Of a stretch of 64,000 nt of DNA, positions 5,901 through 64,000 are shown one piece after another; within the stretch, counting starts at the first letter, position 1; each line of letters begins with the position of its first letter. The translations under genes were made by a program, and so were the position numbers. The notes beneath the pieces were generated by a model, which was not told the origin of the DNA, ran no database searches, and worked only from the letters and a program-made list of their open reading frames with translations. This DNA comes from Iphione sp. A-MEVVRFRX5. Its lineage: Eukaryota. The stretch is from NCBI GenBank assembly GCA_976226885.1, contig OZ320323.1, positions 2,914,001-2,978,000 on the forward strand, written 5' to 3'.

Positions 5901-8900
5901 CCAATTAGAAGGAAATCTGAATATTAATTATTCTAGCAAAATTAAAAATTATTTGGGCTTAAATGATAAAGCAACTCAACGAAAAAAACAGGACCCTACA
6001 CCAAGCAAAATGTCAGAAGTGTGCAAGAGCATCGAACATTTAGTTGGGGGAACGATGACCAATACGGTATGTCCATCTGTCCAGTTATACATTGGTATGT
6101 GTGGGTTGTGTAGTTATATGATCTAAAGGCGACCCCTGGCGACAGATAGTGTTCGAACACAGGAAACGTACGTGGCATATATGTATTGTGCTTTTCTCAG
6201 GAAATGGACATGGAGGAATAAATAAATGTTTACAGTTAACATACAATGTATGACCATACACAAGGGCTCTCTAGCTCTCTTAATTACATGTGTATACGCC
6301 GAAGACAAAACCCCCGAATTATCACCATATACGTTTAACCGGACCCATGGACGATACCCTTAACATGTGGAGAAATGGGGTGACTTCAAGGCAGGGCTAT
6401 TGAAAGACAGGGGCACAGCTGCGGGTAAACATTCAGCTAACTCCGAGCTACTCACAGTTCTTGAGCTGATACTCAATGGCTGCCTTCAGGTTGAAGGCCT
6501 CGATCAGCGCCGTCTCGTGGAGCGTCAGGGTGTTCCCCACGCTGCGGACGTCGATTCCTTCTGTGGTCATACCCACACTCAACTCTACAGGACAATAGAA
6601 GAGAATGACAAAACAAGGGGTCAATCAGTATATACAGATCCCTTCCGCGGTCATACCCACACTCAACTCTACGGGGCAACAGAAGAGAAAACAATGTGTC
6701 AATCTCATCAAACTACTCAACACCATGCTGCTGTACAGATACAGATCCCTTCCGTGGTCATACCCACACTCAACTCTACAGGACAATAGAAGAGAACGAC
6801 AAAACAAGGGGTCAATCTCATCAAACTACTCAACACCATGCTGCTGTATATATACAGATCCCTTCCGTGGTCATACCCACACTCAACTCTACGGGGCAAC
6901 AGAAGAGAAAACAATGTGTCAATCTCATCAAACTACTCAACACCATGCTGCTGTACAGATACAGATCCCTTCCGTGGTCATACCCACACTCAACTCTACA
7001 GGACAATAGAAGAGAAAACAATGTGTCAATCTCATCAAACTACTCAACACCATGCTGCTGTATATATACAGTAGCAACTCACCGTGTGGGCAAATCAACT
7101 ATGAAAAACGACACTCTAACAAGGACAACCCTTTTTTATAGGAACGAATTTGCTGGTTACTTAAATGGTCGCATTACAGGTATTTTACTACATGTAGGTC
7201 AAAAAAGTAGGGAGGGAAAATATTCATTCAACTTGCATGGTTTTAGTGTCAACGTTTAAGGTACAGTAGGAGCTCGCCCGAGAAGTCAGCATTTGTTCCC
7301 ATCAATTTACAACCAGTGAGTGAGGTAACTACTGGGGAGAGGTAATTCCCTGTATATGATATAGAAATTGGCTCCAAAGCTATTGACCATTGGACGCTCT
7401 GGGCAGATGTGGGCATTATGAAAGTTCTACTGGATCTCAAGTAACAGGCACTGCGATAGAGGAAGCATGTACTGCATTTTACATATTTGTAACACTTAAA
7501 TAGAACGGGATGCTTACCTGGGTGTTCGCGAATACCTCGTTCAATGATATCAGCGATGTGCTTCAAGGCGGGTGCGTACTGTTTCAGCATATAGTGGCAC
7601 AGAGCGATGTTGTATGAGAGGTCGGGCTTGTAGCCTAGAATCTGCATGGCTGTGGTAAACTTCTGACAGGCTTCTTCATACTGACCTTCCTGTGAATGAG
7701 ATGGAAAATTATATCAACTACAGTATAAAAGAAACCCCCAACAACATTGCATTACGGAGAATCTGTTTCTAGATTTACTGCATAATGGGATGAATTTTCA
7801 AGGAATAAAGTACCATTTTTCCCTAACATTTATGTTTTTCTCAGTATTTTCTGGTATACTGATGAAAATTAGCAGAGACAGAAGTGCTGGGATATAGGCA
7901 CATGAGATTACACAACTACAGCACAACCGATAATTCCACGAGGAATTTGTGTCAAATCTTTGAAATAAGCGACATAATTCATGCATAAATATATTTATGT
8001 ATATGTATGTAACAGACCTTTATATAAAGACAAACTCAAATAACCTGAACAATAACAATCTTAAGACAATAATTTTGCCCTGTTTTCCTCTGTGTCCTCC
8101 ACCACGACAGGGTGGAACCAGCAGCACGCTACAGCCTGGCAGACAAAGGACTGACAAGGTCTACTCACCCCCGCCTGCTGTTATTTAAGATAATGTTAAG
8201 TACACAAAATTAAACCAGTAAAGGAATCAGCTCGTTTGAGTAGTTATAGGAGTCAAAATATCATGTCGGGGGGTTGGACAGTCAGACCGCAGTATTCGTA
8301 GGTCCCCCAAGCTCTTTAGAGCCCGAGGACAATTAATCTTGTTACATAAGCTGCTTTTTACCATGAATATATTCTTTGTCAATCAAACCTTGAAGAGAAG
8401 GCATCCCAAGTTGATCTCTGTGTCTGGATCATCTGCTGGACACTGCTCCACCAGACTCTGCGCCCCAGGTAAATCCTCCTCTCCGTATTTGATAGCTGCT
8501 TGCAGTTTGGTTATCTGAAATTATTTTAAATGTTTTCCTTATTTTTCGTCACAGCTGTAGGTTGAAAACAGAAGGTTCAAATACAATGAGTTAAACATGA
8601 CTAATCTTTATCATTATTACTGACCTATCCTTGCGAGGTTTGGACATTGTCTAAGTGTGTCTTGTGTTTGATTGCAACAACTGATGACACCTCCGCAAAA
8701 GGTGTGTAGGTCAGGAAATAATGGAATGTACAGCTACAGCAGCAATGGGTTAATTAATACCACCAACACTTTTGGACATCTACTTTGATCATCCCAAACC
8801 ACTTTCTGCTATAGAGCTGAGAAATGCTATGTGATATACTGAGAAATTAAATTTGAAAATCGGATTAAACAAGGTGAAATATGCAACAGAGCACTTACTC

Positions 8901-22600: not shown

Positions 22601-25600
22601 CATGATGGAAACCCTCTGTAAGCAGAAAAGTAAGTCTGAACGCCATTAACGGTTACTTTTCTACTCTTATTACTTATTAGTGAACAAGGACAAAACATTC
22701 ATCTTATCAGTAATCATACGTTTTCAAAGGCCTTCAGTTTTCAATGTATAATTTAAGTTCATACCTTTTCTTTCATTGAAAAAAACAACTCATTTCTAAC
22801 TTTTTATTGTGTTGTGAGCTTCACTACTGGAGACAGCTCGACCCACGTGACCTGCTTGTTTTCAGACCTGCCCTTTCCCTGCGTGGGGATGATCATTGCC
22901 TTGCGGGGCACAGATGGCACTGAGCTCTGGCGTCTCATGACGTACTCCGGCGTCACAGACCTGGACTGTGACGTCATTGACGTCAATTTGGACGGCCGCA
23001 AAGACTGTATTGCCACTGGGCGAATGGGAACCTTGATGGCGTTCGATGTCAGAAATGGTGAGAATAAAAACCAGACAGCCCGTCGGTTTTCCTGTCAGTC
23101 AGTCTGTCAGTCTGTGTGTCTGTCTGTTTGTCTCTCAGTCTGTTTGTTTGTCTTTTGTCTGCTTATTAAGTTACGTAAATTATGTTTCTTTTATTGTGAG
23201 TTGAAGGTTTAACGCCAAACCTCAACAACAGAGCATTATTAGATTCCTCTATTCATTCTATTATTTTTTTTCATGGGTATTACATGTATACTTTTCTAGT
23301 CAACCATATGTGCATGTACTGCAGAGGTCTGAGGTCAGAGGTCAGGTTAATTCTACCAGACAATCTGTTGTACCCCAGATAATGAAGTTTCTGGCAGTGA
23401 AGCTTTTTGCACAGAACACATTCACTTTGTTAACGGAGGGTGTACCTCTATTCAGTAGGCCCTATTGCATCTGTCTCCACCCACCAGTGGACATCATAGA
23501 AATCTGTCAGCCAGTATGTTTTCATCTATGCAGGTACGGTTCTCTGGCACGGCGACTCAAAGAACCTCTTCCGGACGTGGAACTTTTATAACCCAGCAGT
23601 GCTGCCTGACCTTGATCAAGATGGCGTGCCTGAGCTGCTCGTTACCCATGGTGGAGACGATGCCTTCCCACACGCGGTGAGTAAATGCACTTAGACTCAT
23701 CTGTCAGTAGACCGTGACTGCTTGGTGTACTTGATTGGCCTCACTGCCTCTTCTGGATGGTAACCTCCTTCACCACTGTACTGTGACTACTAGTGATAAT
23801 AGGCTCTTTACCTCTCGGGCCACTGGACCGTAACCTGCTGGTATGAATGTATGTGTACCACTAGTGATACTAGGCTGGCTAACTTTCAAAACACTGGACC
23901 GTGACATGTTTGTATGAGTGTATATGTACCATTAGTGATACTAGACTGGTTTAAGTCTAGAATCACTGGACCATGACTTGTTTGTGTGAGCGTGTGTGCA
24001 CCACTAGCGATACTAGACTGGTTTAATTCTAGAATCACTGGACCATGACTTGTTTGTGTGAGCGTGTGTGCACCACTAGCGATACTAGACTGCGATACTA
24101 GACTGGTTTAATTCTAGAATCACTGGACCATGACTTGTTTGTGTGAGCGTGTGTGCACCACTAGTGATACTTGGCAGGTTACCTCTCAATTCACTAGACT
24201 GTGATCTGCTTATGTGAGTGTATGTGTACTACTAGTGATCATTTTAATGTGAATTATATCTTTCCATTTTTATACTGAAATCATCCTGATTCACCGAAGT
24301 GATTTGCTTTCAGTTGGTTAAAGTCAGTGTTTCTTGCACGGAAGCCACAAACAATATTATTTAGGTTATTTTAGAACTTAAAATCCTAGTGCTTCGACTC
24401 CATTTAGTGACTCGATTGAATTAGCAATACTGTAGTGTGTTTGTTTTGGTGTTTTAGCTTTGTAAGTAAAGTTTGGTTTGTGAATAATGTTGCGAGTGTT
24501 TTTACATTGTTGTGTATGTGTACCTAGAAATACACACGTTTTTCATGTGTAGTGTTCATGTAGTCATGTTTTGTTTTATGAATGTTGTATTGTTTGCTAG
24601 CACGCAGTCTTGTGTCGTCATATTTATGATTTATGTTGTTTTTGTCACATCAGCCTGTCTTTCATCCGTGGCGGTTTCAGAGGTAAATATGCCATCTTAA
24701 TGGTCGCCATCGTTTCATCGCTTTCTGTTAAGGTTCCCTAGAAGAAATTAACATCATTTGTTGAGAGTTCCCAAACTAATTATGTGGTGCACTGTTAGTT
24801 TTGATGTGTTTGTTTCTCTTAGAATCTTCCTCCACATGAAACATACTTCAGAAAAGCATGCTGGGTTGATATTGGTGCTTTTCTCTAGTATTAACTTAAT
24901 TAATGGGGAGAATAAGGTGGTAGTTTTCTTTAGTAACATGCTTATTGTCTCCGCACTCCAAGATGAGTTTGGATCCTTAGGATAACTACTGTCTGACCTT
25001 CCATCACAGCATTGTGGGTCTTATAACTTCTCTTAAGTCAAGTAAATCAAACGTTGGATACTATGCTTATACTCATATAGACACTTGCTACTAGCTTATT
25101 TCTAATCCATTTGAAGTAATTTAAAAGTAATTTTAATTTAAAATATTTCAACATATTCTGCCCACCAACACACACACAAATACACACTCACCGTGTGGGG
25201 TGTAACATTGTGCACTCAGGCATATGATTCATTATGCAAGTGTGGTGGTGATAGGTAGTAGAAATGTGTGGGACAATAGACCTTGAAGGTTCACTCTCTT
25301 GTCTATCCGGGGATTGGACTTTAGAGACCACAAGGATACAGAGACTCATTCATATATAATCCATATAACATAGGCTGTAACCTCCTTGATATTACCTCCT
25401 ACAGATACTGTCACTCCCGTCTGTGAGCCGCCAAACACCCATTTCCATGCCCCCCCCTTGATAAAATGTACGCTGAGGCCGTAATTCACTATAAAATCCT
25501 TTATCACCCAGGGTCCCTGCTCAGCCAGACTGAATTCACTGTAAACATTTTGGTCAAACCGGACTTGAACTTCGGGATGTTACGTCCTTAAAATGCATAT

Positions 25601-33300: not shown

Positions 33301-36300
33301 CCATTTTCTCTGAGATGCATTTTGTTGTAATTGGAAATGTTGTTGACTGTATTGTGGATGTAGTGGTAGGAATGCTTTGTTATCCTGTATTAATCAGTGT
33401 AGGTTTATTCTCTCTGATACCATCATCATGTTAAGCTTGTTGTGAGCTTCTGTTGTGGATGTTCTCATGTCTCTCAAGTGTATTGCCCTTTTAATACCTC
33501 TGTTTTGCAGACGTTGAATTTATGCTATCTGTTTGGAATACTGGACCAAATAATGTCTTAATAATCTCTTTACAGTAGTGTTAGACGTTTGTACAGTAAT
33601 AGACTTGTGTTGTTATCTACATACTTATTTACCAGGTTCAGTGCAGTTAGTGGTGTGTTCAATGTCTTTGATAGGTATGTTATGTGGTCCTTCATGGGCA
33701 GACTGTTATCTAGCATTAGTCCAAGATATTTGTAGGAGGTAGCTTGTCTTGATGTTGTGTTGGCTAGCGGTAGTGTGGCTGTTTTCCTGATGCCATTGAT
33801 GTTCTTGTTGGAATCAAATATCATGTTGGTATCAAATATGTATTGTGTTTTGCTTATGTCTAGAGTGTGTTTCGTGCTATTTGTACTGCTGTTGTGAGTG
33901 TTTTGTGTGTGCAGAGGATTATTGTCAAAGAGATTCTGCGCATGCGCGGGACATGGTGAGACTGGCCTAAACTGCGCTCCGCAGGATTACGGAAATAATT
34001 TGGGGTAACTGAAGAATAATTAGATCCAAATGAGTCTCACATGTGCAAATAGCATTATAGATCACGATATACATGATTGAAATGTGAATGATCTATTATT
34101 TGCTATCTAATCCGTCCCCCAAAAATTGACAGCAGCTAGGGTGACCAGAGGTTTGTTTACAGTATCCAAGGAACAACTGTGCTTGACAACAGCAATTTTT
34201 ACTGCAATATAGTCCATAATACCGATACAAAAGGCACTTAATTGACATTCTAAGAATAATTCAATATGCCACTGCGAGTTTTTAAGTCCAAAAAGGGCAA
34301 AAACCCAACCAAAGAGCAGAGTGACTCTGACAGCTCCTCTACGTCCTTCAATGGTTTTACCAAAGAAGAAATCGAAAAGAGTGAGGCTGTATCTAAGGGC
34401 ACTACACCTGGCACAAGTGGTATCAGCAACAAGAAAGGATCTGAGAAGTCGATGACTAAGACTAAAACACTGGAATCCAGTAATTCCAGTGTATCTATGG
34501 TCTCAACAGTCTCAAGAATGTCCAACATCTCTACCAACAAGAAAGAGCTGGAAAGAATCATCAAGTCAGCTATAAAATCTTCGTTGGATGATGCCATGAA
34601 CAGATACGAGGATCGATTTGATTGTATCGAGAATCAAGTGTCAGAAATTACTAATGCCACGATTGACAATATTCAGAGGACGGAGGATATTGAACAAAGG
34701 GCGAGAAATAGAGCTATTAGAATTGTTGGCATGAGGGAAACGAATGAGTCTGATGTGGATGAACTGCTCCATCTATTTGAACAAATGGACATAAACCCTC
34801 AAGTCACTAGACAGGACTTTGATCAGGTTTATAGAATAGGGAGGAAAGACAATAACAATGTAACCAGGCCCCTCTTTGTATCGTTCATAAGAGAATCTAC
34901 TAAGCAACTCATTTATTCTAAAAGAGTTACACTAGGGAGAATCGCTAAAGGGGTCTTCTTCAACGAAGACCTATCCGAAGTCAATCGCAAGAAGTACTAT
35001 AAAGCTAGAATGGAGGTAAAATCTGGCAAATACTCAAGTACATGGACGGTAAATGGTAAAGTATTTGTCAAAGCAACACCTACTAGCAATCCAGTATTGT
35101 ACTCGGATGACAACTAACTCAGCAAGGCAAACAGCAAGGGACATTATCAGTACGAAATTTAATGTATCGAGTTGTACGTAACACCAGATGTATAGCTTTC
35201 GTACTGCTCTATTCTCAAATTTTTCCTCCGGAATTACTGTGACATACGTTTATTTCAACTTACAATTTTTATTTCAGCTCTATCACTTGAAATTTGTACC
35301 CACACAATTACATGACAAAATATATAACACAGATACGCAACATTGCACAGTACGTCATAACACCGGAAATACATCACAATAACCCAACTAAACCGGAAAT
35401 CGTGACACAATTTCTGGATATTGCGAACAACTGACTAAATTTTGCCACACTACTCAGACATGACTCATAATACAATGCACTTATAGCAAATATCCTGAAA
35501 GCAATAGAATCGGTATAGATTACCCTCATAATAATAATATTACAGCACAAGATATTTATTTAATTTACCCCAGTCAGAAATAACACATACAAACGCAATA
35601 CATCCTGCTTTAGCAGAGACCTTTCTTACCGCTGCCTACGGATAGGCACCTATAGGATATATTTTAATAGTTTTTATTTATGGTAGTAAATAAGACTCTA
35701 AACTCAGTAAGAGACCTCAACAAGCGTGGACTAAATATCATCCACGCAAACCTTAGAAGTTTACGGAACAAGGTAGAGAGACTACAAGTTGAACTTGTAG
35801 AAGGAAATATAGATATTTTGACTGTCTCTGAAACATGGCTCCACAAAGACATTCACAATAATGTACTGAATATTGATGGCTATAACTTATTTAGGTTAGA
35901 TAGGAATCATTCAGACAGGAAACATGGGGGTCTAGCCCTATACTACAGTTCGAAAATAGTACAAAATGCAATCATTAGTTATGATACCGAACTCAGTCAA
36001 TCCAATCCTAATATTGAAGTTATGATATGTAAATATCACCATAAATTTTTACGGGACATAAATATTTTGACAATATATAGGCCTCCGACGGGCAATATTA
36101 ACTCCTTTTTTGAGACTCTACAAGATATCTTAACTGAAATACATGCCGATATTACTGAAACAATTTTAATAGGTGATTTTAACATTGATTATGGTAAGCA
36201 TAGAACACCCCACTTTAGGAAATTAAGAACTTTTGAAAATAATAATAATTTTAAAAATTTGATCAACACTCCAACTAGAGTTACAGACAGGACAACTACC

Positions 36301-57557: not shown

Positions 57558-57623
57558 ACAATCCGTTAATTGAAAGAGTGGTTGGGGGAGACCAGAGGAG
57601 TCAACGGGTGGGGAGTTAGCTCA

Positions 57624-57900
57624 GGGTGGGCAGTTAGCTCAGTGGTAGAGCACTGGTCCACTAAATGAGAGGTCACAGGTTCAATCCCAGGCTTGGGACT
57701 CTTCATCAACACCAAACAGATTTACTATAACCCAACCCAGAGTGGTCCACAGCTCATAAAAAGGCTGTGGGTGTATAGGATTCTGTCCTCCATGTGCAAA
57801 AATATTCCAGAAACCTATTTGAAATTTAAAGTAGGGGCAACCCCAGGTATTCTGGTCTCTTCATTCTCAATGATAGACAGTAATATGTGACCCCAGGAGG
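57624..57900 (+). mobile_element. tRNA-derived SINE
   Basis: Pol III A box TAGCTCAGTGG (57634-57644) and B box GGTTCAATCCC (57677-57687), followed by a ~200-bp body shared with 55101-55387. Confidence 0.75.
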
Positions 57901-58369: not shown

Positions 58370-58413
58370 GTTGACCGAGGCAACCTCCAAATACCAATCT
58401 TGTTGACAGCAAC
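58370..58413 (+). promoter_or_regulatory. Two RFX X-box-like motifs
   Basis: GTTGACCGAGGCAAC (58370-58384) and GTTGACAGCAAC (58402-58413) fit GTNRCC-N0-3-RGYAAC with one mismatch each, 35-80 bp upstream of the putative CLUAP1 ATG. Confidence 0.55.
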
Positions 58414-59267: not shown

Positions 59268-59592
59268 ACATGAACAAATCATAGCAAGAAGTAGAACATA
59301 CACTTCCCTGCCCTTCCTGGGTCTGAAATTATCACCAGATTTGTGTTAAATTTCAGAGCTAGGACCATTGTCACATTTGTCACCCAAAAATGTCCAACAC
59401 TTTCATTTGGTGAAGGTTTCATTAAAATTGGACAACTAGAAATGGGTGTGTTTTGCCTGAGAAGACACCGCCTATCCTGCCCTTTACCAGTAACGCAGTT
59501 TGACCCAAGGTGTCCTAGCCTGATTAATGATGTTGTGTATGTGTGAGGAGATCAGAAATGTCTGTTGTGGTGCAACCCTCCAACTTTCTTAC

Positions 59593-59837
59593 TGTTACGG
59601 TGTTTACCGCTCCTTAAACTCATGACGCCAAGAACACAGAGGTAAGTTGAAAAGATGTTTATTCCAACAGAACTGGTCTTAAACTGAGCCGCCCCCCATC
59701 TCCTGCTCACCCTTATATAATGTTACTGAGGAGCTTCCACGCACAGATGCGCTCGCACAATCACCAACGCACGACCACAACCTCGCACAACCAAGCTCGC
59801 ACACTCTCATCACAATCACCACCACACGCGCGCAACA
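59593..59837 (-). repeat. Gypsy 3' LTR (245 bp)
   Basis: The minus strand begins TGTTG and ends TAACA; it contains TATATAA and AATAAA and is immediately preceded by PPT AAGAAGGGGGAAG (59838-59850). Confidence 0.85.
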
Positions 59838-60608
59838 CTTCCCCCTTCTTAGTTTCTACCGTCTCGGTAGAACAACGACACTAACAACAGGTCTGCACTA
59901 GCTCAGACCAACTTCAAGAGAACTCCATTCCACAGGAATGGTAAGAGATGTAACCGCACAGTACAGTGCTAGGCTTAGGAGAGTTACTGGAATAGTTTGC
60001 CAGAACAGACATGATGAACACTTGTACCAACTACAATCTTACAGTAATATTTCCAATATGGAAAATCACATCAACTTATAGCCCAAGTACATGAGCTTAC
60101 TGGCCTACAGTGGCCCAAGAAAAGGAGATGCAACATACTCCATAAAAACTTTAACAAGTCCTTATCCTTCCTCTTATGTAAGGTCAGAATCCACTAGGAT
60201 CCCCAGTACAGGGGAAACTTAGTCTGGTTACCTCCACACATCACAGGACACCACAACACTACCGAAAATAAAACAGTGCAAAAGGCACCGGAGCTGAGCT
60301 CTACACATTACAGGACACACAACAGAATTCACGCGACATTCAAGGTACCCTCATCAATAGGCAACAAGGTAACAAGCCTAACGTTAAGCTCAACAACTCC
60401 TTAGCCTAAACACATGAGGCAATTTTGTATGCTAGGGGTACATACATCATGGACATGAGAAATACAAAGACGTGGTCTGCTAACCAGAGCCACGGCCAAG
60501 GGGGACCCAGCGGTCTGGTTTACGACTCTCCCCTCAGATAAAATTAACCAAACTACCTCCCGGAGAGGAAGGAAAACAACCCATAAGGGGTCGAGAGAAT
60601 ATTCCCTA

Positions 60609-63600
60609 TTACTTATCTAGCAGGTACTCGAACTCCTCTGACATGGTGAAAATCCGCATATTTGGGCCATCGCTAGTGTGTCCCCACTGTTCTTTGACCA
60701 GCCGGGGCTGGCGACCTTCCAACATGGCCGACCGTTCGTAGTACCAAACGCGTACGCCAAGGATAGTCCCTGCGTCCGTTCGCTTCAGGGTCATGGACTG
60801 CTCCACGGTCAGTGTCACCACTCGCCCTTCGACCCGGGTACGAGTAAGTCCCTCGGTTTCTTGGATTAACCAGCCTGGTGGAGGGGCAACATCGGGGGTA
60901 ACCAACCTGGCCGTCTGCCAAAGAATGAGGAGCTGGGGAACCACCGTGGGCTCTCCAGAAATGGTGAAACGCTCACTCTTTCTGTTGACCTGCACTAGCA
61001 GTCCAGCTTCTTCCCCAGGGTCCAAGTCTGAACCCAGGTTGGCACCTTTTCTCGGACTGTTGGCCCGGGGACGCACAGGTGACCCTTGTGGAGTAATCCG
61101 GGGTCGCACAGGTGACCCTTGGGGGGTAATCCGGGCCACCAGATCGCGCCGATCCACGGGTTTCCCCGTCGTCGGTCCTCCCGTCCTGGTCGGCGTCCCA
61201 GGGGGCAGTGCAGGGGGAGCCGCACCCGCATCCGCGATGATGGTGATGTCGCTGTCACCGTTCGGCTCCTTCTCCTCTGCGGTCTTGACTACGAACTCTT
61301 GCCCCGGTAAGAGGGCCACCCCGTCACACACGAACTCCTGGTCCTTTCCCGACACCCGGATCTCTTTGTTGGGTACACGGTAATCCAGGCGTGGGGTCTG
61401 GGCCACAGTCTCGGTGGTGAGTCCCTTGGGCGGGTAACTGGCCTCGACCTCTGAGGCCGACGAGATGTCCTCGTAAACCGGGGCCTGTACAGTTGCCACC
61501 GAAGAAGGAGCGGACGCCCGGGGGGTCTGAGTGTGAGGAGGTCGCATGTCCGGCTCCCGGAATCCTCCAGCAGGTATCGTACCAGTCACAGCGGTCGTGC
61601 CAGTCACAGCGGTTCCCGCTCCCGTCGGGGTTGGGGTGGGGACCGCAGGGGGGACTGGCATGTCCCGGCGTCCCCCACTGGAAGACACCTGGTCCCCATG
61701 CCCAACCCCTTCGTCCAACTCCATGAGGCAGGTCTGGTCAGGGTCAGTTCCCTCAACCCCCGGGGCCACCCGCACGTCTCCACCGCCGGGAGCCATCGTC
61801 CCCTGACCTGTGATGGACTGAGTGTGCGACTGCCCCACGTCCCCGGTGGTAGTGGTCACGGTTACCACCGTGTCGGTCGCTGTCGTCGGCGGGCCTGAAT
61901 CAGAACCTGACAACCCCTGCAGATTCCCAAGTCCTGCCAGGAATTCAGAAGGGCTCCAATCTGAGTCGGCTGGGGACCACGCGATCACCTTCTTGGGCGG
62001 CGCCCCACCCTCGTCACTGGATATGAGGATGACACTGGTCTTCTTCTTGCCTCTAGGCCCCAGGGAAGAGTCGGAGGACGACGAGCCAGGTGTGGCTCCA
62101 CTGGAGGAGTCGCCCACCCGTAGTTGCCCGACGCGCAGAGGGGGGAGGGCCTTCTCTGACTTTCGGCGGGAAGCGAGTCCTTTACCCTTGGTTACCTTCC
62201 GTACGGCCGTATCCGAACTGGGTACCCGTCGCACCGGCGGACCCACCTCGCTGTGGCTTCCGCCCTTGCCTTTCTGGGGAACGACTACCCCTGAGGGGCC
62301 TGGGACCGGCTGGGCAACGGGGGTGGGAGCCATCCCCTCACCGGAAGGCCCCGGCATAGGAGCAGGAGAGGGCCTAGGCGTCAGAGGGGGCGGCACACGA
62401 GTAGCCCCCGAGTCCCCTGTCTCCCGCCGTTGTCGTGCCTCCTCTTCCATCTCGGCCCGCTCTTTCCGCCGCTTCTTGGCCTCCATGATACGCTGGTACT
62501 GGTATTCTTCTTCCAGTTCAGCGGGCATACGTTGAGGGTAACCCCGCGTGGGGTTTGAGCCCTCAAACATCAGATACTCGATGTCTATCTTCTGCCCTAA
62601 CTCCAGGCCATGATGGACTAGGCGGAGATGGCGGACCAGGTCGGATCGTCGATGGAACGCTTGACTCCGGCAGGTGGGCGTGGGACACCGGCGCCCAAAC
62701 CCCACGATCTCATGCTTCTCCTCGATATGTTTAAGGAGACGATACTTGTTGGGGAATGCCCGGTCGCAATACTGGCACTCCCACTTCGCCTTGGTTGACG
62801 ACATGCCGGCGCCGAGGAGGTGCGAAGCAAGCCCGCATGAGTCGCTCACAGAAGCGGTAGATGCCCGCACGGGAAACTCGCACGACTGGTCTCCAGGAGC
62901 GGTCAACCCGCAGGGTGCGATCTTGCCACGCGCGCGAAGCTGAACGGAGAACCCTCGCACAGGTGCGGTAGTGATTGCACTGGCCGGTCCCGGAGCAAGT
63001 TCGATAGTGCGGTGGCGCCCTGCAGCGACAAGGGGTAATCCGATAATCGCTCGAGCACCGTAATCCAGATCGAACGATCTTCCCCCCAATCCATAATTCC
63101 CCGCATGAAATCGATCCAAATGCCAGCCAACATGATCTAAACAGTTACTCACGAGGATAGTCCAACAATTTTCGCACAGGGGAGGCCGTTTCCCTTCGGA
63201 ATTCCAGTTATTCCTTCGTAGCGACGCTAATCGGCACTTTCCTCCAGCAGATTTCAGTTCCTCCAGCGTCCTTCCAGGAGGCGCCCTAATCGCGCGCTCA
63301 TGGTAGTGCGTTCGTTCCTCGCTAGAGGGCGACTCTGTTCGACCGCTATCGCACGCACTACGTGCGAGGCCCATTCTTTCAGGTGGCGCTCCACTCGTGC
63401 GCTCTTGTTCGTGCGCGCACTTTCCGCTAGGTGGCGACTCGCTCCCGTACCAGCTGTCCTCGCACGACTCGTGCCCGCCTTCCGCGCACGAACATCGGCC
63501 GACGACGTCCTCCGCTAAGCGCAGCCTCCTCACCACCGCCAGACTTTCTGCCGATTCCTGATCTTCTACTTCAGTGGGAGCATCCATAATTGCCTTCTTC

Positions 63601-64000
63601 AAGAGATCACCATGGACTATTTTTGTAGTCCTGCCTTTCTTGATGCGGAAGACCACCAGAGACAGTTGCTGGTCAATAATCCAGGGGCCTGTCCACCAGC
63701 GCTCCAGCTTCGGTGAGCGACCAGGCTTTTTCACAGGTTGAAACAGCCACACTGATTGCCCCACCTCCAACTTTTGAGGACGAACCCGGTTATCATACCA
63801 GTCAGCTTGCCTTTTTGCCACTTTCTTCAATTGCTGGGCCACCCCTCGGTACGCCGATTGCGCCTCCTGGTGTAAGTCCTGTGCGTAGAGGGGGAGATCA
63901 AAATCCTCTCTTTCCGGGCCCCCATACATCACCTCCACCGGAAGCCTGGTTTCACGCTGCGTCATCAGCCAGTTCGGGGTGTGACCAGTGCTTGCATGGG
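60609..64000 (-). CDS. Gypsy pol C-terminus: integrase tail fused in frame to a ~990-aa extension with C2H2 zinc fingers
   Basis: Uninterrupted ORF of at least 1118 aa, open to the window edge. The first ~125 aa are the integrase C-terminal region (GPF/Y-type motif KLERWWTGPW). Later come CQYC-x12-H-x4-H and CPTPTC-x13-H-x4-H fingers. Confidence 0.85.
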   Translation of the reverse strand, partial: HASTGHTPNWLMTQRETRLPVEVMYGGPEREDFDLPLYAQDLHQEAQSAYRGVAQQLKKVAKRQADWYDNRVRPQKLEVGQSVWLFQPVKKPGRSPKLERWWTGPWIIDQQLSLVVFRIKKGRTTKIVHGDLLKKAIMDAPTEVEDQESAESLAVVRRLRLAEDVVGRCSCAEGGHESCEDSWYGSESPPSGKCAHEQERTSGAPPERMGLARSACDSGRTESPSSEERTHYHERAIRAPPGRTLEELKSAGGKCRLASLRRNNWNSEGKRPPLCENCWTILVSNCLDHVGWHLDRFHAGNYGLGGRSFDLDYGARAIIGLPLVAAGRHRTIELAPGPASAITTAPVRGFSVQLRARGKIAPCGLTAPGDQSCEFPVRASTASVSDSCGLASHLLGAGMSSTKAKWECQYCDRAFPNKYRLLKHIEEKHEIVGFGRRCPTPTCRSQAFHRRSDLVRHLRLVHHGLELGQKIDIEYLMFEGSNPTRGYPQRMPAELEEEYQYQRIMEAKKRRKERAEMEEEARQRRETGDSGATRVPPPLTPRPSPAPMPGPSGEGMAPTPVAQPVPGPSGVVVPQKGKGGSHSEVGPPVRRVPSSDTAVRKVTKGKGLASRRKSEKALPPLRVGQLRVGDSSSGATPGSSSSDSSLGPRGKKKTSVILISSDEGGAPPKKVIAWSPADSDWSPSEFLAGLGNLQGLSGSDSGPPTTATDTVVTVTTTTGDVGQSHTQSITGQGTMAPGGGDVRVAPGVEGTDPDQTCLMELDEGVGHGDQVSSSGGRRDMPVPPAVPTPTPTGAGTAVTGTTAVTGTIPAGGFREPDMRPPHTQTPRASAPSSVATVQAPVYEDISSASEVEASYPPKGLTTETVAQTPRLDYRVPNKEIRVSGKDQEFVCDGVALLPGQEFVVKTAEEKEPNGDSDITIIADAGAAPPALPPGTPTRTGGPTTGKPVDRRDLVARITPQGSPVRPRITPQGSPVRPRANSPRKGANLGSDLDPGEEAGLLVQVNRKSERFTISGEPTVVPQLLILWQTARLVTPDVAPPPGWLIQETEGLTRTRVEGRVVTLTVEQSMTLKRTDAGTILGVRVWYYERSAMLEGRQPRLVKEQWGHTSDGPNMRIFTMSEEFEYLLDK

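Follow-up and report, generated by a model that had tools for sequence, protein, structure and literature searches.

A Pol-fused C2H2 finger pair in Ty3/Gypsy retrotransposons of Iphione sp. as the probable reader, and likely activator, of a family-specific word in the element's own promoter

The general view of LTR retrotransposons is that they depend on host transcription factors. C2H2 zinc fingers, for their part, are known as a host weapon against these elements, being deployed in the KRAB-ZFPs (PMC6719617). Two described systems offer the closest parallels to the locus considered here. In the foamy viruses, the Tas protein binds both an internal promoter and the LTR and thereby sets up a positive feedback (PMC3798896, PMC4929722). 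In the VANDAL transposons of Arabidopsis, the VANC proteins are sequence-specific anti-silencing factors that co-evolve with motifs in their own transposon (PMC5735166, PMC6719617). A further point of reference comes from accessory domains, among which the available parts of the literature name the chromodomain, env, exonuclease, helicase, methylase, AlkB, OTU, Ulp1 and PHD (PMC9289625, PMC6338049, PMC2836005, PMC13524379). The literature searched, a scope outside which lay Repbase, GyDB, supplements and most subscription journals, yielded no Pol-fused C2H2 regulator in LTR retrotransposons, and the available parts of PMC8556966, PMC13269885 and PMC13547354 hold nothing similar; the two-finger domain that we describe is thus apparently undescribed.

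The element lies on the minus strand at the end of the window, by which we mean the whole 64,000-nucleotide stretch of DNA analysed (G000:C26:2914001-2978000, in a searched genome of 1.18 Gb), and spans 8364 bp (G000:C26:2973593-2981956). Within the window, a stop-free minus-strand frame of 1129 codons (60609-63998) is open at the window end and forms the 3′ part of a pol ORF that continues outside. It terminates 756 bp from the polypurine tract (59838-59852, minus strand), in agreement with the roughly 760 bp of the initial annotation. The 245-bp 3′ LTR (59593-59837, minus strand) is 100% identical to its 5′ counterpart, and a 4-bp target-site duplication, reading TTAC on the plus strand (59589-59592), recurs beyond the 5′ LTR outside the window. 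A TATA box was recognized in the LTR sequence (59712-59719, minus strand), and the U3 upstream of it (59720-59837, minus strand) carries five GTGCG words (59740, 59754, 59768, 59784 and 59798). The LTRs have TG..CA ends, and a primer-binding site, which resembles tRNA-Leu, accompanies the polypurine tract and the duplication. In sister copies, gag is followed by pol in another frame with the order PR-RT-RH-IN (Pfam; four Pol and two Gag proteins), and GGGAAAC at the end of gag in families A and B is, we assume, a slippery site. The closest solved relative of the RT-RNase H is that of the yeast Ty3 (Ty3-G, PDB 7q5b; E 2.5e-111). Domain order, LTR features and RT thus all identify the family as Ty3/Gypsy. 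It shares with the yeast Ty3 the domain order and separate gag and pol frames, and differs from it in the 4-bp target-site duplication, in the tRNA-Leu-like primer-binding site and in a Pol that, with its extension, reaches about 2150-2740 aa, the addition alone accounting for about 1000-1500 aa. Neither a separate ORF of at least 300 aa between the pol stop and the LTR nor an env Pfam match was found, and no chromodomain was matched in the four Pol proteins (E≤0.5) or the window ORF (E≤1). The window copy is young, given its identical LTRs, but not autonomous: it is without about 860 bp that sister copies have, covering the protease and the start of the RT.

Beyond the integrase C-terminal domain (aa 78-135; 63594-63767, minus strand; Integrase_p58_C, below cut-off in the window copy) the frame runs on for 994 aa, bearing out the stop-free extension of about 990 aa originally reported. 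All parts of it are on the minus strand. A linker (62805-63590), open and weakly constrained, bears a candidate protease site (63525-63548) and 17 GTGCG words on both strands. A Met codon (aa 399; 62802-62804), a candidate second start, precedes finger 1 (62712-62777) by nine codons; finger 2 (62613-62687) is followed by a conserved segment with a charged helix (62415-62612), a disordered region of about 470 residues (61005-62414) and an orphan C-terminal alpha/beta domain of 131 aa (60612-61004). Where the initial annotation had seen a charged coiled coil, the charge was confirmed (21 of 36 residues are E, K or R) and the coiled-coil label was not. Its Cys/His cluster, CENC-x10-H-x3-H, is likewise present (63105-63176) but not conserved, recurring in 0/26 other family-A copies and 0/12 other families; as a functional module it was discarded, being private to the subfamily of the window copy and probably incidental.

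Genome searches were run from the finger region, from the terminal domain and from three Pfam families, and the best 40-150 matches per search delineate at least about 16 related finger-bearing Ty3/Gypsy families, named A-M, P, Q and R. Their Pol is laid out alike, the integrase being followed by a variable linker, the C2H2 finger pair, an extended disordered region and the orphan terminal domain. The span from the integrase end to finger 2 was readable in 106 of 113 fetched loci, many of which had been picked for long ORFs: 100 are open, four are in frame with stops and two are frameshifted. Among the seven loci that the pattern did not read, L107 is frameshifted, and L141 and L142 are open by separate reading. 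Family-A copies taken by similarity alone are open in 27 of 30 cases, and 41 different lengths, between 729 and 1971 nt, occur among the open spans. The finger pair was present in 10/10 elements with long ORFs that had been picked by way of the integrase C-terminal family. The fusion of integrase and fingers is, hence, confirmed as real and conserved, which settles the question about sister copies that the initial annotation had raised. RT trees, restricted to this genome, unite the finger-bearing families in a single clade to which 13 finger-less Gypsy loci do not belong, and no finger-less close relative that might serve as a near control emerged among the genome loci sampled. The families are many and of recent origin, the two LTRs of a copy mostly sharing 98-100% identity. 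One copy (L087) has its gag replaced by an internal duplication.

Pairwise dN/dS between real copies (16 pairs) sets the parts of the extension apart: the integrase gives 0.02-0.12, the fingers 0-0.19, the terminal domain 0-0.25 where computed (synonymous sites being saturated for the fingers and this domain in two family-C pairs) and the disordered region 0.14-0.35 (six pairs). The linker reaches 0.48-0.85 in 12 of the 16 pairs and 0.16-0.42 in the other four. The fingers and terminal domain are thus under purifying selection as proteins, answering the dN/dS question of the initial annotation in their favor; the linker is barely constrained as protein. No alignment is obtained between the linkers of families A, B and C, and 32 stop-free linkers of distinct length contain 295 and 355 stops in their other two sense frames. 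Given the weak protein constraint and the non-aligning sequences, the linker is selected mainly for staying open. As a separate observation, dS between L083 and L084, elsewhere about 0.2, steps up at the fingers to 0.35-0.6, which suggests recombination between subfamilies near the linker.

Both fingers were found as originally quoted, at 62613-62777. Finger 1 is detected by Pfam below cut-off only (zf-C2H2_4, E 0.0011), none of the eight Zn ligands varies across 19 aligned copies, the finger helices were modelled with a pLDDT of 68, and the best matches are generic, to CTCF-type fingers. In ligands, core and modelled beta-beta-alpha fold the pair is classical C2H2, and DNA binding is predicted for it; the spacer between the fingers exceeds the canonical length. 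The finger profile recovered 25 poly-finger proteins of a generic kind, and an integrase domain is annotated in none of them. The terminal domain, present in every family aligned, was modelled as two helix-strand-strand units (pLDDT 82, pTM 0.72). It has no Pfam or PDB sequence match of note, nothing at E≤0.001 in Foldseek and no match among 1.84 billion representatives (7-sequence profile from families A-C); a phage neck protein (9mu2_D), the best structural candidate (Z 8.1, rmsd 3.5, 101 aligned), was rejected as within the chance range. The ESM Atlas returned generic C2H2 clusters for the fingers and nothing usable for the terminal domain, metagenome and viral contigs held no relative, and the protein databases held none of either region, in word searches covering entries of up to 2000 aa, below full Pol length, which makes these negatives weak. 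The HMM and structure searches advised by the initial annotation have thus been run and matched generic C2H2 proteins only, with no described Gypsy accessory protein among the matches. Within the disordered region, short motifs occur at 62010-62033 (VILISSDE), 61929-61961 (DWSPSEFL) and 61458-61475 (YEDISS), all on the minus strand; the first is a SIM-like motif. SIM-like words occur in 8/13 families and xDIS/VS words in 9/13.

A link between the fingers and the DNA of the element was suggested by short words. In families A-C the U3 holds a GTGCG array upstream of TATATAAG: six family-A copies have 5-7 GTGCG in the U3 (1.3-2.0 expected), and four have 12-17 in the linker over both strands (2.3-2.8 expected), the window copy showing five and 17, respectively. 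No GTGCG cluster occurs in the pol, finger-to-stop region or 3′ UTR of family A. When the top U3 pentamers of each family were taken blind and counted in all linkers, they were enriched in the family's own linker in 13/14 families (z≥4.2), with a mean z of 5.9 in the own linker versus 1.9 in those of other families (permutation p=5e-5); the integrase core (p=0.40) and the disordered region (p=0.96), as control regions, gave null results. Hexamers led to the same overall outcome, though the enrichment was weak in families G (z 0.1), E (2.1) and F (2.4). By family, the leading words are TGCGAG in A; TGCGGG in B, C, D and H; (T)GCGGC in G, K, L, M and P; TGCGGC and TGCGGA in F; GGCGGA in I and J; and GCGGAG in Q. 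In 13/14 families the U3 and linker thus share a family-specific GCG-core word. As the words lie on both strands, their target would be DNA rather than RNA; and, since the longest exact match between U3 and linker is 10-16 nt, the U3 was not simply copied into the linker. A third cluster is seen in the 5′ part of gag in 6/14 families by hexamer (p=0.011) and in family A by pentamer. Retention of CpGs between subfamilies is higher inside the words than elsewhere in the linker in 6/6 subfamily sets (0.90 versus 0.71 in A), from pairs that are non-independent. GCG[GA] occurs at 2.5-8.0 per 100 bp in 14 U3s versus 0-1.1 in the LTRs of three finger-less Gypsy elements, which are distant, were scored over whole LTRs and include one with a TGCTG array of its own. 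The linker (62805-63590) is a candidate internal promoter or enhancer.

The words can be compared with the finger helices. Finger 2 has R at -1, D at +3 and R at +6 in every family, which by the C2H2 code table used here would read GCG; finger 1 differs among families and has N, R and K at these positions in the window copy. Such codes draw on four helix positions, with Arg nearly always reading G, and prediction from them is unreliable, as described in PMC4627083. We applied the table in a form written after the U3s of families A-I had been seen and fixed thereafter. For the three finger-1 positions, the real pairing of helix and word exceeded shuffled pairings both in the U3 (p 0.023, 0.002 and 0.019) and in the linker (p 0.008, 0.008 and 0.020) over 17 lineages; these amount to three clades, so that real independence is well under 17 and the permutation p-values overstate it. 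Before or as their U3s were printed, GCGGAn was predicted for J and GCGGAG for Q, and both U3s carry GCGGAG. E and E2 are without the basic +6 residue and without GCG-G. In family E (L121, L171-L175 and L180), the basic residues of finger 1 were lost under purifying selection, the U3 has a GTGCA/GTGCT array and the linker cluster is absent (L121); the family may represent a natural switch of specificity or function. The code misses at the fifth base, where N at +3 predicts A: the base is C in G, K, L, M and P and mostly G in H, with R mixed. The word, then, partly follows the finger helices of each family, and binding of the finger protein to the words of its own element is, on this sequence evidence, likely.

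We therefore favor, at a probability of roughly 0.6, the reading that the Pol-fused two-finger protein binds the GCG-core word in its own LTR promoter and linker and likely switches on its own transcription. Activation, as opposed to binding, is our best guess for what the bound protein would do, and it is the somewhat better bet. Whether the whole clade runs a Tas-like private circuit, with a particle-borne Pol-fused C2H2 activator whose helix drifts together with the word of its own promoter and whose response element lies inside an ORF, we put at even odds. Two routes to the protein can be envisaged. A small amount of Gag-Pol would be made by -1 frameshifting and would bring the finger protein along when it enters the particle. 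There the protease may free the finger protein, probably by a cut just after the integrase, so that it would arrive with the new, unmethylated cDNA. The initial annotation had called for a search for cleavage sites, and a candidate was found: the pattern [VI]xx[VLIMC], which resembles that at the RH/IN junction, follows the integrase in 14/16 representatives versus 53/206 background windows, the pattern having been chosen after looking. The linker likely has a second role as internal promoter, driving a shorter RNA on which the protein would start at its own Met, and positive feedback would result. Of 16 representatives, 15 have a Met no more than 38 codons ahead of finger 1 (chance 0.21 each) and 14 have a purine at -3 (0.57 background, p=0.009), three of the 16 being subfamilies; position and context fit a separate start served by an internal promoter in the word-rich linker. 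Neither a TATA box common to the linkers nor, by inspection, a splice acceptor common before the Met was found. Since read-through is strict, the fused form presumably matters too, besides the separate start. The disordered region and terminal domain would then recruit host transcription or chromatin factors, and the activation exerted by a family would be largely confined to that family and to relatives sharing its word. The earlier reading of the extension as transcription-factor-like cargo, possibly processed from Pol, fits a fusion that is conserved, selected and predicted to bind DNA; what it missed is the word clustered inside the element, in U3 and linker, and changing with the fingers.

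The first alternative, that the fingers bind these same words but repress or limit the element through SUMO-binding and co-repressor motifs, as a form of copy-number control, is unlikely. It would draw on the same word evidence, on the SIM-like words in 8/13 families and on signs of methylation throughout the elements, private CpG transitions being 2.3-7x the non-CpG ones across the coding regions of 18 family-A and 11 family-B copies. Activators usually bind directly upstream of the TATA box, and this is the place that the words fill in the U3; the youth, abundance and nearly identical LTR pairs of the families also speak against a repressor. The mutation spectra bear, moreover, on anti-silencing. 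CpG transitions are no rarer in word-rich regions (66/7674 versus 135/20013, p=0.11, in the wrong direction), so that lasting protection from methylation by the finger protein is not supported, and the elements appear to be CpG-methylated without durable protection. A transient effect on new copies may still occur, and Asp at +3 tends toward unmethylated C.

Still less likely is that the extension stays on the integrase and steers insertion to host sequence or chromatin, or beside older copies. Its appeal lies in the strictly kept fusion, in the precedent of the chromodomains of chromoviruses (PMC9289625) and in two loci: one of 48 insertions (L072) lies inside the linker of its own family, and one flank of L064 has 13 words. 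The initial annotation had offered sequence- or promoter-directed insertion as one of its readings, pointing to an X-box promoter nearby, and X-box-like sites are indeed present at 58370 and 58402 (58370-58413), about 1.2 kb from the LTR. Yet the 41 of 67 loci with a clean 4-bp duplication and enough flank (the rest failed boundary calling or coverage) have RTAY target sites in 36/41 cases and a central TA in 41/41, and these sites lie in AT-rich DNA. The 300-bp flanks of 48 insertions match the background in GC, in CpG o/e (0.52 versus 0.50-0.53) and in X-boxes (four in 28.5 kb versus six in 60 kb), and 81/96 flanks are without the finger word; GTGCG is at about twice the background (35 sites), with 22 sites contributed by two loci, one of them nested in its own family's linker. 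As the flanks match the background in CpG and X-boxes and mostly lack the words, the X-box near the window insertion looks like chance, at low power. An unconserved linker of 220-550 aa and the candidate cut site also intervene between integrase and fingers. Sequence or promoter targeting is thus not supported, and what the element encodes is likely a means of turning itself on, not a guide to insertion sites. The nested L072 (G000:C2:89391000-89400999) is a family-B element, inverted, within another family-B copy.

Less probable again is a role outside transcription altogether, in which the protein would attach to its own cDNA within the pre-integration complex and serve nuclear import, the assembly of the intasome or a safeguard against auto-integration: this would accommodate the kept read-through, the words in both LTRs and the basic helix, but leave unexplained a separate Met in good context and the dense cluster directly upstream of it. 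The least probable reading, that the words are host-factor sites and the fingers do an unrelated job in protein or RNA binding, can point to the code misses in 6-7 lineages, the sharing of words by descent among related families and the long finger spacer. Against it stand the joint change of the word in U3 and linker from one family to the next, a fit to the helices closer than that of shuffled labels, and a weakening of the word where the basic residues of finger 1 were lost.

The favored reading, in which the finger protein is an activator of its own element, invites a closer comparison with the described systems, and the element belongs to neither the Tas nor the VANC systems. As with Tas/Bel1, going by the available parts of those sources, the element encodes a predicted DNA-binding regulator 3′ of the core genes, and its candidate response words lie in the U3 and just upstream of the regulator's own gene, a layout with shared sequence words in 13/14 families. 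Unlike the foamy viruses, these are Ty3/Gypsy elements in which no env was seen, the C2H2 pair is an in-frame extension of pol, the open linker rather than env houses the internal region, and binding and activation are only predicted. The likeness to VANC, as far as the accessible text describes it, consists in a family-specific accessory protein and short motifs gathered in the element's own regulatory DNA, which co-vary, with misses here at the fifth base. VANC differs in belonging to Mutator-like DNA transposons, in being a separate gene and in causing demethylation; here the motifs lie partly inside a translated frame, and the mutation spectra are without lasting demethylation. The chromoviruses and Ginger1 (OTU/Ulp1/PHD) similarly place an extra domain behind a Gypsy-type integrase in the portions available (PMC9289625, PMC13524379, PMC2836005). 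Chromodomain, OTU, Ulp1 and PHD have no match in our extension, which differs in being a sequence-reading module aimed, by prediction, at its own element, with no insertion bias beyond RTAY. If the favored reading is true, a retrotransposon with its own C2H2 reader would reverse the role of these fingers as a host weapon. It would parallel VANC in an animal and, among retrotransposons, the transactivators of complex retroviruses. Each family would then have its own switch, making a natural series of finger-site pairs; with about 16 families that differ in their helices and have matching words, short peptides and oligos would suffice for a direct test of the co-evolution of protein and site. 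The linker, moreover, is DNA selected simultaneously as an open frame and as a motif cluster.

Further elements were noted in passing. Other Gypsy lineages (L161-L168 and L170) have 445-545 aa after the integrase core without a C2H2 pattern, and distant Gypsy elements (L136-L138) have long env-like third ORFs, L136 with a TGCTG array downstream of its TATA box. Within the window, a tRNA-like stretch at about 57620-57700 has the appearance of A- and B-boxes and is probably a SINE, ARAGORN reporting no tRNA within the window. Stretches at 7249-7713 (minus strand), 22757-23212 and 48785-49204 (both plus strand) are presumably host exons, resembling IFT70/TTC30 and a FAM234-like gene. A GC-rich element at 41641-46606 (plus strand), with gag-like, RT, RNase H/methylase-like and tyrosine-recombinase-like ORFs, we take to be DIRS-type. 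A LINE at 34260-38601 (plus strand) has an ORF1 and a 976-aa endonuclease-RT ORF, and a related broken copy (L012:5042-9064) lies about 3 kb beyond the 5′ LTR of the finger-bearing element.
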